Positions 35,874-40,985 of a stretch of 64,000 bases of DNA are shown piece after piece. The notes below the pieces were generated by a model. That model did no database searches and was not told where the DNA came from. It worked only from the letters and a program-made list of their open reading frames with translations. Every line of letters begins with the position of its first letter. Positions within the stretch are counted from its first letter, which is position 1. The position numbers and the translations under genes are program-made. This stretch comes from Escherichia coli (GTDB lineage Bacteria; Pseudomonadota; Gammaproteobacteria; Enterobacterales; Enterobacteriaceae), in the NCBI RefSeq assembly GCF_024502345.1, contig NZ_JALDNN010000001.1. One strand, written 5' to 3'.

Positions 35874-36686
35874 ATGGCACGCATTATTGTTGTTACTTCG
35901 GGCAAAGGGGGTGTTGGTAAGACAACCTCCAGCGCGGCCATCGCCACTGGTTTGGCCCAGAAGGGAAAGAAAACTGTCGTGATAGATTTTGATATCGGCC
36001 TGCGTAATCTCGACCTGATTATGGGTTGCGAACGCCGGGTCGTTTACGATTTCGTCAACGTCATTCAGGGCGATGCAACGCTAAATCAGGCGTTAATTAA
36101 AGATAAGCGTACTGAAAATCTCTATATTCTGCCGGCATCGCAAACACGCGATAAAGATGCCCTCACCCGTGAAGGGGTCGCCAAAGTTCTTGATGATCTG
36201 AAAGCGATGGATTTTGAATTTATCGTTTGTGACTCCCCGGCAGGGATTGAAACCGGTGCGTTAATGGCACTCTATTTTGCAGACGAAGCCATTATTACCA
36301 CCAACCCGGAAGTCTCCTCAGTACGCGACTCTGACCGTATTTTAGGCATTCTGGCGTCAAAATCACGCCGCGCAGAAAATGGCGAAGAGCCTATTAAAGA
36401 GCACCTGCTGTTAACGCGCTATAACCCAGGCCGCGTAAGCAGAGGTGACATGCTGAGCATGGAAGATGTGCTGGAGATCCTGCGCATCAAACTCGTCGGC
36501 GTGATCCCAGAGGATCAATCAGTATTGCGCGCCTCTAACCAGGGTGAGCCGGTCATTCTCGACATTAACGCCGATGCGGGTAAAGCCTACGCAGATACCG
36601 TAGAACGTCTGTTGGGAGAAGAACGTCCTTTCCGCTTCATTGAAGAAGAGAAGAAAGGCTTCCTCAAACGCTTGTTCGGAGGATAA
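35874..36686 (+). CDS. minD: Septum site-determining ATPase MinD
   Basis: 270 aa, MARIIVVTSGKGGVGKTTSSAAIATGLA... Confidence 0.95.
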   Translation: MARIIVVTSGKGGVGKTTSSAAIATGLAQKGKKTVVIDFDIGLRNLDLIMGCERRVVYDFVNVIQGDATLNQALIKDKRTENLYILPASQTRDKDALTREGVAKVLDDLKAMDFEFIVCDSPAGIETGALMALYFADEAIITTNPEVSSVRDSDRILGILASKSRRAENGEEPIKEHLLLTRYNPGRVSRGDMLSMEDVLEILRIKLVGVIPEDQSVLRASNQGEPVILDINADAGKAYADTVERLLGEERPFRFIEEEKKGFLKRLFGG

Positions 36687-36689
36687 GTT

Positions 36690-36956
36690 ATGGCATTACT
36701 CGATTTCTTTCTCTCGCGGAAGAAAAATACAGCCAACATTGCAAAAGAACGGCTGCAGATTATTGTTGCTGAACGCCGTCGCAGCGATGCAGAACCGCAT
36801 TATCTGCCGCAGTTGCGTAAAGATATTCTTGAGGTCATTTGTAAATACGTACAAATTGATCCTGAGATGGTAACCGTACAGCTTGAGCAAAAAGATGGCG
36901 ATATTTCTATTCTTGAGCTGAACGTGACCTTACCGGAAGCAGAAGAGCTGAAATAA
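36690..36956 (+). CDS. minE: Cell division topological specificity factor MinE
   Basis: 88 aa, [31 protein letters not shown]... Confidence 0.95.
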
Positions 36957-36982
36957 TCCCGCTGTAAAAGCGCATTTATCTT

Positions 36983-37013
36983 CAAGGCAGAGTTATCTCT
37001 GCCTTGAGTTTTT
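36983..37013 (+). terminator. Rho-independent terminator after minE
   Basis: CAAGGCAGAG-ttat-CTCTGCCTTG followed by a T-run. Confidence 0.7.
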
Positions 37014-37103
37014 CATCCCTCTCATCCACGTTGTGGTAAAGCGGCGAGTATTCTTGCTGATACTCCTCATTGCTATTTCCACCTCCCCCTTTACACCTTA
37101 AGG

Positions 37104-38160
37104 GGCTTTGTTGAATAAATCGAACTTTTGCTGAGTTGAAGGATCAGATCACGTATCTTCCCGACAACGCAGACCGTTCCGTGGCAAAGCAAAAGTTCAA
37201 AATCACCAACTGGCCCACCTACAATAAAGCCCTCATCAACCGTGGCTCCATAACTTTCTGGCTGGATGATGAAGCTATTCAGGCCTGGTATGAGTCAGCA
37301 ACACCTTCTTCACGAGGCAGACCTCAGCGCTATTCTGACCTTGCCATCACGACTGTGCTGGTCATTAAACGCGTATTCAGGCTGACCCTGCGCGCTGCGC
37401 AGGGCTTTATTGATTCCATTTTTTCTCTGATGAACGTTCCGCTACGCTGCCCGGATTACAGCTGTGTCAGCAGGCGGGCAAAGTCGGTTAATGTCAGTTT
37501 CAAAACGCCCACCCGGGGTGAAATCGCACACCTGGTAATTGATTCCACCGGGCTGAAGGTCTTCGGTGAAGGCGAGTGGAAAGTCAAAAAGCATGGCCAG
37601 GAACGCCGCCGTATCTGGCGTAAGCTGCATCTCGCCGTTGACAGTAAAACACATGAAATCATCTGCGCTGACCTGTCGCTGAACAACGTTACGGACTCAG
37701 AGGCCTTCCCCGGGTTAATCCGGCAAACCCACCGGAAAATCAGGTCAGCCGCCGCCGATGGCGCTTACGATACCCGGCTATGTCACGATGAACTGCGGCG
37801 TAAGAAAATCAGCGCGCTTATCCCTCCCCGAAAAGGTGCGGGTTACTGGCCCGGTGAATATGCAGACCGTAACCGTGCAGTGGCTAATCAGCGAATGACC
37901 GGGAGTAATGCGCGGTGGAAATGGACAACAGATTACAACCGTCGCTCGATAGCGGAAACGGCGATGTACCGGGTAAAACAGCTGTTCGGGGGTTCACTGA
38001 CACTGCGTGACTACGATGGTCAGGTTGCAGAGGCTATGGCCCTGGTACGAGCGCTGAACAAAATGACGAAAGCAGGTATGCCTGAAAGCGTGCGTATTGC
38101 CTGAAAACACAACCCGCTACGGGGGAGACTTACCCGAAATCTGATTTATTCAACAAAGCC
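37104..38160 (+). mobile_element. IS903-like insertion sequence (IS5 family, IS903 group), copy 1, 1057 bp, no target-site duplication
   Basis: 18-bp terminal inverted repeats GGCTTTGTTGAATAAATC at both ends; internal transposase; flanking 9-mers differ (ACCTTAAGG vs ATCGTGCAC). Confidence 0.9.
37181..38104 (+). CDS. IS903-type DDE transposase
   Basis: 307 aa from a GTG start (VAKQKFKITNWPTYNKALINRGS...); matches the remembered IS903 transposase from Tn903. Confidence 0.85.
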   Translation: MAKQKFKITNWPTYNKALINRGSITFWLDDEAIQAWYESATPSSRGRPQRYSDLAITTVLVIKRVFRLTLRAAQGFIDSIFSLMNVPLRCPDYSCVSRRAKSVNVSFKTPTRGEIAHLVIDSTGLKVFGEGEWKVKKHGQERRRIWRKLHLAVDSKTHEIICADLSLNNVTDSEAFPGLIRQTHRKIRSAAADGAYDTRLCHDELRRKKISALIPPRKGAGYWPGEYADRNRAVANQRMTGSNARWKWTTDYNRRSIAETAMYRVKQLFGGSLTLRDYDGQVAEAMALVRALNKMTKAGMPESVRIA

Positions 38161-38208
38161 ATCGTGCACACTACGCAGTCTCACAACTAACAAGAGGTTA
38201 TTATCCTG

Positions 38209-38613
38209 ATGGATCAGGTCGTTGTTTTTCAAAAGATGTTTGAGCAAGTGAGAAAAGAGCAAAACTTCTCCTGGTTTTATTCAGAATTAAAACATCACCG
38301 TATTGCACATTACATTTATTATCTGGCTACGGATAACATCAGAATTATTACTCACGATGACACGGTTTTGTTATTAAGAGGAACCAGGAACCTGTTAAAA
38401 GTTAGTACGACCAAGAACCCTGCTAAAATAAAAGAGGCCGCATTGCTTCATATTTGCGGAAAATCTACATTTCGGGAATACTGTTCAACACTGGCAGACG
38501 CGGGCGTTTTCCGTTGGGTTACTGATGTTAATCATAACAAACGCAGTTACTACGCCATTGATAATACGCTTTTATATATTGAAGATGTAGAAAATAATAA
38601 ACCATTAATCTAG
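38209..38613 (+). CDS. ycgX: Hypothetical protein YcgX (DUF1398-like)
   Basis: 134-aa ORF with AGAGG Shine-Dalgarno; size and position next to iraM match K-12 ycgX; sequence identity not independently confirmed. Confidence 0.6.
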   Translation: MDQVVVFQKMFEQVRKEQNFSWFYSELKHHRIAHYIYYLATDNIRIITHDDTVLLLRGTRNLLKVSTTKNPAKIKEAALLHICGKSTFREYCSTLADAGVFRWVTDVNHNKRSYYAIDNTLLYIEDVENNKPLI

Positions 38614-38819
38614 CTAAAGTTGGATGCTTAAGAAATGCTTCATAATTCAGTATGGCATTAGCATAATGGGAATAAAAGTACAGAGACTATCCCTATGGAT
38701 GATAAATACTGTCCTTTTATTGCTACCCATAAATAATCACCTGGCCAATACTATCAAATTGATATTTGAAATGTGATCACTTGACTTTCTATACGTTATT
38801 TCATAACGTTTAATATATT

Positions 38820-38870
38820 TATAAAAACAACGGGCGTGCCATACGCCCGTTTCAATACTTAACGCACATG
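38820..38870. repeat. Second copy of the icd-terminator-like ~50-bp element (AACAACGGGCGTG..ATACGCCCGTTT..AATA.TTAAC.CACATGT)
   Basis: Near-identical to the sequence at 39690-39734 immediately 3' of icd, including the GGGCG/CGCCC hairpin. Confidence 0.5.
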
Positions 38871-39308
38871 TGTTTTGGTTTAGTCATCATCCAGTTATAT
38901 GTATTTTAGCCAGGAACAGGTTAAACCTTTCCTATATAACTCAAAAATTGAAACCTTATTCTCATGTCATGCTTATATTCATTATTATCGTTATATAAAA
39001 AGGCAACCATAATGTTTAGCAAATTGGCACAAAGTAGCATAAAGGCTATGTTTTAATTACAGGATGGTCAGTCATTTGAATGTATAACATTATAGCTAAA
39101 CAAATCTAAAACGAAGTGAATAATTTATTGTTTTCACTAAATCTCATTTTGTTTAACATCCATTGAGATTCCTTGCTTTAAATTTTGTTTTATATAAGCA
39201 ATTGTTTTAATTAATTTATTTTTTGAAGGGGTAATATACTCATATGCAAAATAAAGAAATGAACATCCAAATGAACTATATTAAATACCGTGGGATAAGA
39301 CATAACAA

Positions 39309-39632
39309 ATGAAGTGGGTAGTAATTGACACGGTAATTCAACCTACATGCGGCATATCTTTTTCAGCCATATGGGGTGATATGAAAATGATTATCTGGTA
39401 TCAATCTACTATATTTCTTCCTCCTGGAAGTATATTTACACTGGTTAAGCCTGGTATTATCCTTAAGGATAAAGAATATCCTATAACTATTTATAACATT
39501 GCACCATTCAACAAGAATTTATGGAGTTTACTCAAAAGCAGTCAAGAGTGTCCTCCAGGAGAAAGCGAAATAACAAATAAATGTTTGCATAAGAGTTGTA
39601 TTATAAAAATATGCCCATATGGGCTCAAGTAA
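39309..39632 (+). CDS. iraM: Anti-adaptor protein IraM (inhibitor of RssB-mediated RpoS degradation)
   Basis: 107 aa, [41 protein letters not shown]...; matches remembered IraM with a few substitutions; lies in very AT-rich DNA. Confidence 0.8.
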
Positions 39633-39689
39633 TGGGTTTTATATAAATATGCTCGATATGCTATTAATAATATCCACATAAATAAAACA

Positions 39690-39722
39690 ACGGGCGTGTT
39701 ATACGCCCGTTTAAATATTTAA
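39690..39722. terminator. Bidirectional rho-independent terminator shared by icd and iraM
   Basis: AACGGGCG-tgttatac-CGCCCGTT hairpin with A/T runs on both sides, immediately 3' of the icd stop. Confidence 0.7.
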
Positions 39723-39734
39723 CACATGTAGTGA

Positions 39735-40985
39735 TTACATATTTTTGATGATCGCATCACCAAACTCTGAACATTTCAGCAGTTTAGCGCCTTCCATCAG
39801 ACGTTCGAAGTCATAGGTTACGGTCTTCGCATTGATTGCGCCTTCCATACCTTTAACAATCAGGTCTGCGGCTTCGGTCCAACCCATGTGGCGTAACATC
39901 ATCTCAGCAGAGAGAATAATAGAACCTGGGTTAACTTTGTCCTGACCGGCATATTTCGGCGCAGTACCGTGGGTGGCTTCAAACAGGGCGCATTCGTCAC
40001 CGATGTTTGCACCAGGGGCGATACCGATACCGCCAACCTGCGCTGCCAGGGCGTCAGAAATGTAGTCACCGTTCAGGTTCATACAGGCGATAACATCATA
40101 TTCAGCCGGACGCAGCAGGATCTGTTGCAGGAATGCATCAGCAATCACGTCTTTAATGACGATCTCTTTGCCGGTATTCGGGTTTTTAACTTTCAGCCAC
40201 GGGCCGCCGTCGATCAGTTCACCGCCAAATTCTTCACGCGCCAGCTGGTAGCCCCAGTCTTTAAACGCGCCTTCGGTGAACTTCATGATGTTGCCTTTGT
40301 GCACCAGGGTCACAGAGTCACGATCGTTAGCAATTGCGTATTCGATCGCTGCACGAACCAGACGTTTGGTGCCTTCTTCAGAACACGGCTTAATACCGAT
40401 ACCGCAATGTTCCGGGAAGCGAATTTTCTTCACGCCCATCTCTTCACGCAGGAATTTAATCACTTTCTCGGCGTCGGCAGAGTCAGCTTTCCATTCGATA
40501 CCCGCATAAATGTCTTCCGAGTTTTCACGGAAGATAACCATATCGGTCAGTTCAGGGTGTTTAACCGGGCTTGGAGTGCCCTGATAGTAACGTACCGGAC
40601 GCAGGCAGATGTAGAGATCCAGTTCCTGGCGCAGGGCAACGTTCAGAGAGCGAATACCGCCACCAACCGGAGTGGTCAGCGGGCCTTTAATGGCAACGCG
40701 ATATTCACGAATCAGATCAAGGGTTTCAGCAGGCAGCCAGACATCCTGACCATAAACCTGTGTGGATTTTTCACCGGTGTAAATTTCCATCCAGGAGATT
40801 TTACGCTCGCCTTTATAGGCTTTCTCGACTGCAGCGTCGACCACTTTCAGCATGGCTGGGGTTACATCTACACCGATTCCATCACCTTCAATGTAAGGGA
40901 TAATCGGATTTTCAGGAACGTTGAGTTTGCCGTTTTGCAGGGTGATCTTCTTGCCTTGTGCCGGAACAACTACTTTACTTTCCAT
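39735..40985 (-). CDS. icd: NADP-dependent isocitrate dehydrogenase (intact native 3' end, no e14-type replacement)
   Basis: 416 aa, [30 protein letters not shown]... ending ...GDAIIKNM. Confidence 0.95.

Follow-up and report, generated by a model that had tools for sequence, protein, structure and literature searches.

In a 64,000-nucleotide stretch of an Escherichia coli genome (contig NZ_JALDNN010000001.1 of RefSeq assembly GCF_024502345.1; the whole stretch is hereafter called the window), iraM, the gene of an anti-adaptor that stabilizes RpoS, occupies a layer of its own beside the isocitrate dehydrogenase gene icd. This layer of 0.86 kb is bounded by two copies of the icd terminator, of which copy A adjoins icd and copy B lies on the far side of iraM. 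The account that we favour, with a probability of roughly 0.6, is that an integrase inserted a lambdoid element carrying iraM at the 3' end of icd, that the element subsequently decayed, and that recombination between copies A and B later deleted the islet in one lineage. Copy B itself is very probably a displaced relic of the 3' end of icd and its terminator.

The duplication of attachment (att) sites at icd and the accretion of islands at hot spots are already known, and in this sense the locus is an ordinary genome scar. What is new is the placement of the iraM islet among such layers, the older and longer allele of the interval, and the repeat-mediated loss of iraM; no paper describing the islet as an insertion layer of icd was found in the literature searched, the coverage of which was incomplete. 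The arrangement would provide a structural reason for the polymorphism of iraM, namely deletion between repeats of 46-48 nt, which affects about one fifth of complete genomes. It also suggests that the 3' flank of icd consists of the stacked remnants of successive insertions, a view that helps to annotate the region and to date its layers.

The repeat pair and the icd terminator

A repeat search of the window, which is oriented in reverse of the K-12 chromosome, identified a direct repeat of 43 nt (38824-38866 and 39684-39726) with 88% identity and a spacing of 860 bp. If one 2-nt indel is allowed (a GC present in copy B), the match spans AAAAC to ACATGT, so that copy B occupies 38824-38871 (48 nt) and copy A 39684-39729 (46 nt); the two agree at 42 of 46 bases. 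The identity comprises a 23-nt hairpin (38829-38851 in copy B, 39689-39711 in copy A) with flanks of 5 nt (left) and about 20 nt (right), and thus exceeds the 9-bp stem. An earlier note on this DNA, made from the sequence alone, had claimed that the sequence 3' of icd recurs downstream of ycgX with similarity in its flanks, and this proved correct. Similarity confined to the hairpin stem, the outcome that would have spoken against that claim, is not what is seen, as the flanks match on both sides. The claim that ycgX belongs to the islet did not hold, because ymgK and iraM are the only genes enclosed by the repeat pair (about 860 bp), with ycgX and ymgL beyond it towards the old host side. The islet proper extends over 812 bp (38872-39683, plus strand), and together with one repeat copy it makes up the 860-bp unit.

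Copy A (minus strand) ends 5 nt from the icd stop codon (39735-37) and has the characteristics of a working intrinsic terminator with a short spacer in the 3' untranslated region. According to a terminator scan and RNA folding, its minus strand forms a 9-bp stem with six GC pairs, followed by UUGUUUUAUUU, with a folding energy of -19.8 kcal/mol (z = -4.2). In the window, copy B forms this stem on its minus strand as well, and UUGUUUUUAUAA follows. Both copies are therefore predicted intrinsic terminators, with a GC-rich stem-loop and a run of U on the transcribed strand. As copy A also lies 51 nt past the stop codon of iraM, it is predicted to be a convergent terminator shared by the two genes. 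A scan for the hairpin in one genome per species, in which the E. coli representative was not among the matches, placed it directly 3' of icd in six genomes, those of E. albertii, E. whittamii, Escherichia sp. E1V33 and three Citrobacter, all with a TT loop and the spacer TTTAACACATGT. In the Escherichia and Citrobacter genomes scanned, the exact hairpin was found beside icd only. It is this conservation beside icd that identifies copy A as the orthologous icd terminator.

The hairpin of copy A is intact in all nine E. coli alleles examined, and the stem of copy B is broken in three of eight window-type alleles (K-12, TUM9757 and O103:H2 12009), a decay that is to be expected of a relic. The strong run of U in copy B lies in the direction of icd, on the minus strand, and no gene of this strand now reads into the copy. 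Copy B is recognizable by three markers of its own, a CC loop, the motif AATAC and the extra GC. A dispersed family of the repetitive extragenic palindromic (REP) or bacterial interspersed mosaic element (BIME) type was ruled out, as there are only two copies in the 64-kb window and two, with no third, in the 19 kb between iraM and hlyE of K-12. Likewise, no third, older terminator copy was found between ycgX and minE in K-12, and an Rfam search returned only chance matches below threshold, e.g., tpke11 at 39661-39729 (21 bits, where the gathering score is 43). We also considered the targeting of terminator hairpins by group II introns or insertion sequences (IS). This was dropped, since neither intron nor transposase sequence is present in the islet and a duplication of 46 nt is not a product of such insertions.

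The same module is carried by elements that insert in icd. The prophage e14 and phage 21 share an attB site in icd, and both reportedly duplicate the 3' end of this gene in their attL and attR sites. Papers on this site by Hill et al. (1989) and Wang et al. (1997) are among the references of PMC12803456. Twenty-eight Escherichia phage records (phage 21, ev017, 4A7, 1H12, D2 and others) match the window from 39682 to about 39893-39898; the match comprises the terminator, the spacer and the final ~165 bp of icd, and it stops precisely where the A/B repeat has its left edge. Phage 21 has the order int, three arm sites, terminator, ICDH-like pseudogene (ICDH, isocitrate dehydrogenase), and a b region with sitABCD, and its record annotates the module as a terminator, flanked by attP arm sites and int. 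In K-12, e14 carries a diverged module (AAAACAACGGGAGCGTTACGCTCCCGTT...) that is preceded by three arm-type repeats TTTTGATAA(C). The e14 and phage 21 copies part from the host sequence just left of AAAAC, as copies A and B do. The claim of the earlier note that integrating elements bring their own 3' end of icd is therefore well founded, since elements of the phage 21 type and e14 carry the icd tail and the terminator with the same left boundary as the repeat.

Because these elements carry both the icd tail and the terminator, each insertion duplicates the module, leaving a new copy at icd and the old copy at the far end of the insert. K-12 displays such stacking, in the order icd, e14 terminator, e14, icdC, copy A, iraM, copy B, ymgL. 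Elements of this kind also lie beside icd in other genera and species: phage 21-type arm sites and an integrase fragment in E. albertii, e14-type arm sites with DarT/Macro cargo and an integrase in Citrobacter Cu233, and an AAA_21 ATPase and HNH cargo with an integrase in another contig that has the hairpin. The e14-type elements have a cargo slot between the arm sites with the terminator and the integrase (L007 3670-10159; L028 313-5108; L049 1420-4863), which is filled by different defence genes, i.e., DarT and a Macro-domain protein in Citrobacter Cu233, the AAA_21 ATPase with HNH in L028, and Lit in K-12. The contig L028 was deposited as part of a metagenome-assembled genome of 'Sporosarcina psychrophila'; its Icd C-terminus is the same as that of E. 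coli (100% identity), it also has the icd terminator and an e14-type element, and it is probably an enterobacterial contamination.

The window is free of e14 and phage 21 DNA throughout, in agreement with the earlier claim that e14 is absent. The related claim that icd has its native 3' end here cannot be established, as the last ~215 nt of icd with the terminator are at about equal distance from the K-12 icdC copy (94.1% identity), phage 21 (93.4%) and e14 (92.6%). A GenBank record from strain EC38, filed under phage 21, has 98.6% identity to the icd 3' segment. In the population this segment is a mosaic, with terminator and icdC variants that differ between strains despite left flanks that are 99% identical. 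In E. coli THO-015, for example, terminator and icdC at ymgL (L059 ~2610-2700) have a Citrobacter-like spacer (GTTACCGTTTTTAAC) next to a left flank that shares 99% identity with strain 536, an indication that the segment was swapped by phage traffic or recombination.

It has been stated that iraM "is found on the e14 prophage" (PMC4045071). However, this placement is inaccurate, as the window contains iraM and no e14 DNA. In K-12, icdC and copy A are located between mcrA and iraM, so that iraM is outside the e14 boundary. The layer bounded by the icd terminator copies corrects this assignment.

The divergent allele, IraM relatives and the probable loss of iraM

A rarer allele of the interval from ycgX to icd was reached through an IraM homologue with 73% identity and is present in 19 complete E. 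coli genomes, those of WL297 (L058 13879-20844) and 18 others (L056 is a further locus with this allele). In WL297 the order is ycgX, a ymgL-like gene, copy B, 234 extra nt, an ariR/ymgB-like gene, iraM, trkG, and an Rz fragment, followed by an IS fragment, an open reading frame (ORF) of 455 aa, arm sites of the e14 type, a terminator, and icd. Here, copy B matches copy A over 66 nt with ~80% identity, through the icd stop codon and the last 4-5 codons of the gene. It keeps ACATATTCTTGAT, the icd stop codon and last codons, as 13 consecutive identical bases in collinear position, and past the 66-nt match no significant similarity to icd was detected in this allele (p = 0.23). Since the AATAC marker is common to both B copies, they trace back to a single ancestral copy B, part of which was icd coding sequence. 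Compared with the divergent allele, the window allele is without the 234 nt just after ACATGTG, 437 nt containing the ariR-like gene, and ~4.8 kb after iraM; the loss of the 234 nt after ACATGTG explains why the icd tail is gone from copy B of the window. The divergent allele also contains prophage DNA, as its stretch from trkG to Rz has 89.5% identity to lambdoid phage DNA annotated as Trk protein and Rz/spanin. No phage match was found for the 281-nt segment after copy B that is specific to this allele. The identity of its IraM is 73% at the amino acid level, and that of its ycgX ~80% at the nucleotide level.

The window IraM (39309-39632, plus strand, 107 aa in the ORF list) has 92.5% amino acid identity to K-12 IraM, on the basis of which the two are orthologous. 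A search of the protein against Pfam with hmmscan gave no family at E <= 0.01. The family PF11183 (PmrD family) is precomputed for all but the four truncated ones of 31 IraM homologues, and these homologues are named IraM. Paralogues with 62-69% identity occur in the late regions of lambdoid prophages, and in E. coli and E. albertii prophages they are located between Q and nanS-p/holin genes. Relative to these phage copies the likeness of chromosomal iraM is confined to the coding region, with 71-73% nucleotide identity.

The iraM gene resembles the accessory genes of the lambdoid IraM/IraL family, such as IraL on the potB island of CFT073 (PMC4045071) and the homologues in phages encoding Shiga toxin 2 (Stx2), with which it shares the family, AT-rich DNA, carriage by prophages or islands, and variable presence in E. 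coli. Unlike them, chromosomal iraM is fixed beside icd in ~70% of complete genomes, outside any recognizable prophage. Among the loci with IraM-family genes (L046 3001-3324 of Stx2 phage 1717; L050-L055), those in Stx2 and Stx2c phages have the gene directly downstream of stx2AB on the opposite strand. A predicted phage-borne RpoS-stabilizing anti-adaptor beside toxin genes may deserve attention.

The presence of iraM is itself polymorphic. Of 5426 complete genomes, 3843 have the filled form and 1037 have an empty junction, among them ATCC 11775 and ATCC 25922. Strain 536 has the order ycgX, ymgL, one hairpin, icdC, and thus is without exactly one 860-bp unit; its single hairpin combines the left flank of copy B with the loop and right flank of copy A. 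The genes ycgX and ymgL are also present in the iraM-less strains. Over the 621-nt ycgX-ymgL flank, identity is 97.4% between K-12 and 536, 96.6% between the window and K-12, 96.3% between the window and 536, and ~80% between each of these and WL297. Because the empty allele is nested among the filled ones and the outgroup WL297 is filled, a single loss by recombination of A with B is the simplest history, and the iraM-less strains are best read, from these alignments, as products of a secondary deletion, i.e., as the derived state. The comparison with iraM-less strains suggested in the earlier note thus does not reveal a pre-integration state, as their flank is nested within the diversity of the strains that carry iraM. 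The IS1 copy that splits iraM in E. coli FDAARGOS_944, the closest complete genome (99.6%; L003 5156-6256), represents another route to loss.

The opposite polarity, in which the 536-like form is the pre-insertion site and a later insertion of the 860-bp iraM segment duplicated the terminator, concerns the direction of the polymorphism only, and we consider it improbable. The structure of the junction fits insertion and deletion equally well, and the single copy has the ancestral TT loop. However, the empty flank is nearer to that of K-12 than the two filled alleles are to each other, and the outgroup allele, at 80% identity, is filled as well, with homologous intergenic DNA and the shared AATAC marker. 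Hence, two or more independent insertions at one place would be needed.

Origin of the islet

The repeated element is the icd terminator module, in which a short 3' spacer is joined to a GC-rich hairpin of 9 bp and a run of U. Temperate elements that insert at the 3' end of icd bring a replacement icd end and terminator; after each insertion a fresh copy lies beside icd, and the older one has been displaced, terminator included, to the distal end of the insert. We infer that a lambdoid prophage with an IraM-family accessory gene inserted at icd, that its integrase made the original duplication, and that iraM came with this element. Deletions may then have whittled the prophage until only ymgK and iraM remained between the displaced copy B and the icd-proximal copy A. 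Subsequent recombination of A with B within the shared AAAACAACGGGCGTG would have removed one 860-bp unit in the lineage that includes 536, ATCC 11775 and ATCC 25922, the probable direction of the polymorphism being from filled to empty. The earlier note had read the repeat pair as the limits of an older integration that delivered iraM. This reading has gained from the icd tail and the lambdoid fragment of the divergent allele and from the prophage relatives of IraM; within the window, it lacks an integrase, arm sites, and an icd remnant.

The closest known systems are the attL/attR sites of e14 and phage 21 at icd. The iraM layer resembles them in the gene, the module (icd tail and terminator), the left boundary of homology, which falls at the end of the terminator, and the orientation, and in K-12 the e14 layer is stacked on the iraM layer. 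The polymorphism of exactly the element and one repeat is also that of an att-bounded element. In contrast to e14 and phage 21, the repeat in the window is only 46-48 nt long, being terminator and spacer without the ~165-bp coding part, some of which survives in the divergent allele, and without the crossover core. The iraM unit has no integrase, excisionase, or arm sites, encloses 0.8 kb rather than 15-45 kb, and, judging from this content, would no longer be excisable in a site-specific manner. Another related system is the tandem build-up of genomic islands at a single hot spot, where decayed att repeats separate the layers; it is best known at tRNA and tmRNA genes. The icd locus shares with it the successive inserts at one site, the older material lying outward, the direct repeats at layer boundaries, and the repeat-mediated loss of a layer. 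It differs in that the target is the 3' end of a protein-coding gene with its terminator and that the inner layer is reduced to a single domesticated regulator gene.

A number of observations weigh against the proposed history. No integrase ORF was found between or beside the repeats in the window, the icd-proximal copy included, and no arm-type TTTTGATAA or TTTTGGGGAA motif was found in 38000-40000. No significant similarity to icd coding sequence was detected to the right of copy B in the window by local and anchored alignments tested against 2000 dinucleotide shuffles (p = 0.13-0.99); weak similarity there hinted at by MAFFT was dropped for the same reason. Copy B differs from every other terminator copy in its CC loop and extra GC, peculiarities that could mean a foreign source instead of divergence in place. 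The non-coding part of the islet (38852-39308), with 436 nt between copy B and iraM, gave no phage match. The divergent allele, which differs in ~20-27% of its nucleotide sequence, could have a history of its own. Copy A has been lost there, so that the paired structure is not intact, and iraM is located after trkG and not before the lysis genes as in Stx phages, an order that matches no known phage. Finally, the outgroup Escherichia and Citrobacter loci with the hairpin all have e14-type or phage 21-type elements at icd and no ycgX nearby; because of these other elements they show neither the empty nor the filled state, and the ancestral state is not directly observed.

The missing integrase and arm sites would be accounted for if the duplication had a non-site-specific origin, either as an illegitimate duplication of the icd 3' end or through import by homologous recombination on terminator homology. 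The mosaic character of the locus, with terminator/icdC variants that differ between strains with 99% identical left flanks (THO-015), also fits such an origin. We nevertheless regard it as unlikely, since it invokes an ad hoc event in a place where exactly such duplications, with the same left boundary, are demonstrably made by two or more integrase families, and since prophage DNA lies between the copies in the divergent allele.

It is also conceivable, but quite unlikely, that attachment took place at the terminator itself. A small element with an attP similar to the icd terminator and spacer alone would then have recombined in the region of the hairpin and produced copies A and B as hybrid attL and attR sites, with no use of the intragenic core of e14 and phage 21. 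Such a site would agree with the end of the homology in the window 5 nt before the icd stop codon, and with the single copy of 536, which has the left flank of B and is A from the loop on, as for a crossover in the shared 15 nt; the private substitutions of copy B could then be differences between attP and attB. However, copy B of the divergent allele runs into icd coding sequence, so that the duplicated segment originally exceeded the terminator. Moreover, every icd-associated element seen uses an intragenic core and carries the terminator along, and no integrase of such an element was found. That A and B are unrelated and alike by convergence or chance is hardly credible, for although GC-rich hairpins followed by runs of T are common, the identity includes loop-adjacent positions and non-stem flanks and by itself refutes this, the hairpin pattern has only two sites in the 64-kb window where none was expected in 100 shuffles, and the icd tail of the divergent allele shows common descent.

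Beyond the insertion and decay of a lambdoid element, a more speculative role of the terminator module may be considered, doubtful as we think it is. The module might serve as a handle that is independent of integrases. Since each element that targets icd brings or leaves a nearly identical copy of 46 nt, homologous recombination between any two of these could delete, swap, or pass from strain to strain entire cargo layers (iraM; defence genes such as Lit or DarTG; sitABCD). If so, the 3' flank of icd would be a cassette-exchange site, and the absence of iraM from the lineage of 536 and ATCC 25922 would represent one recurrent and selectable outcome, re-tuning the stability of RpoS.

The surrounding region

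As the earlier note had remarked, the interval is very AT-rich, with a GC content of 24-39% across 38200-39700 (24-33% in the islet proper) versus ~50-54% in icd and in the IS element on the left. Within the islet, a small ORF of 14 aa (39012-39056, plus strand) corresponds to 'protein YmgK', which RefSeq annotates at the equivalent position in K-12 and others. Directly left of copy B is ymgL, a small ORF of 36 aa (38666-38776, plus strand) that is likewise annotated by RefSeq at the equivalent position. It is preceded, outside the repeat-bounded unit, by ycgX (38209-38613, plus strand), whose product is a DUF1398 protein (Pfam PF07166, E = 1e-47). On the other side, icd (39735-40985, minus strand, 416 aa) is intact and has no prophage inserted. 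It is followed by rluE, nudJ, and mnmA, and phoPQ lies ~5 kb beyond icd.

The left edge of the locus is an IS903-like element of the IS5 family (37104-38160, plus strand, 1057 bp), identified by its inverted repeats, transposase ORF, and matches to IS903B, beyond which lie minD and minE (35874-36956). In the interval from minE to ycgX, this element (with flanks at 36957-37103 and 38161-38208) replaces 10,970 bp of K-12 sequence, with the loss of ymgJ, ymgI/G/D, ycgH, ymgF, pdeG, ymgC-ariR-ymgA-ycgZ, bluF, and bluR. The junction between the IS and ycgX is spanned by none among the best matches listed, all of which begin at query position 56 and otherwise cover the whole query.

The iraM gene has been reported to be activated by PhoP. 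Upstream of it, at 39146-39195, the motif ATTTTGTTT(A/T)A(C/T)AT occurs twice, 36 bp apart, and the copies contain TGTTTA-like half-sites.

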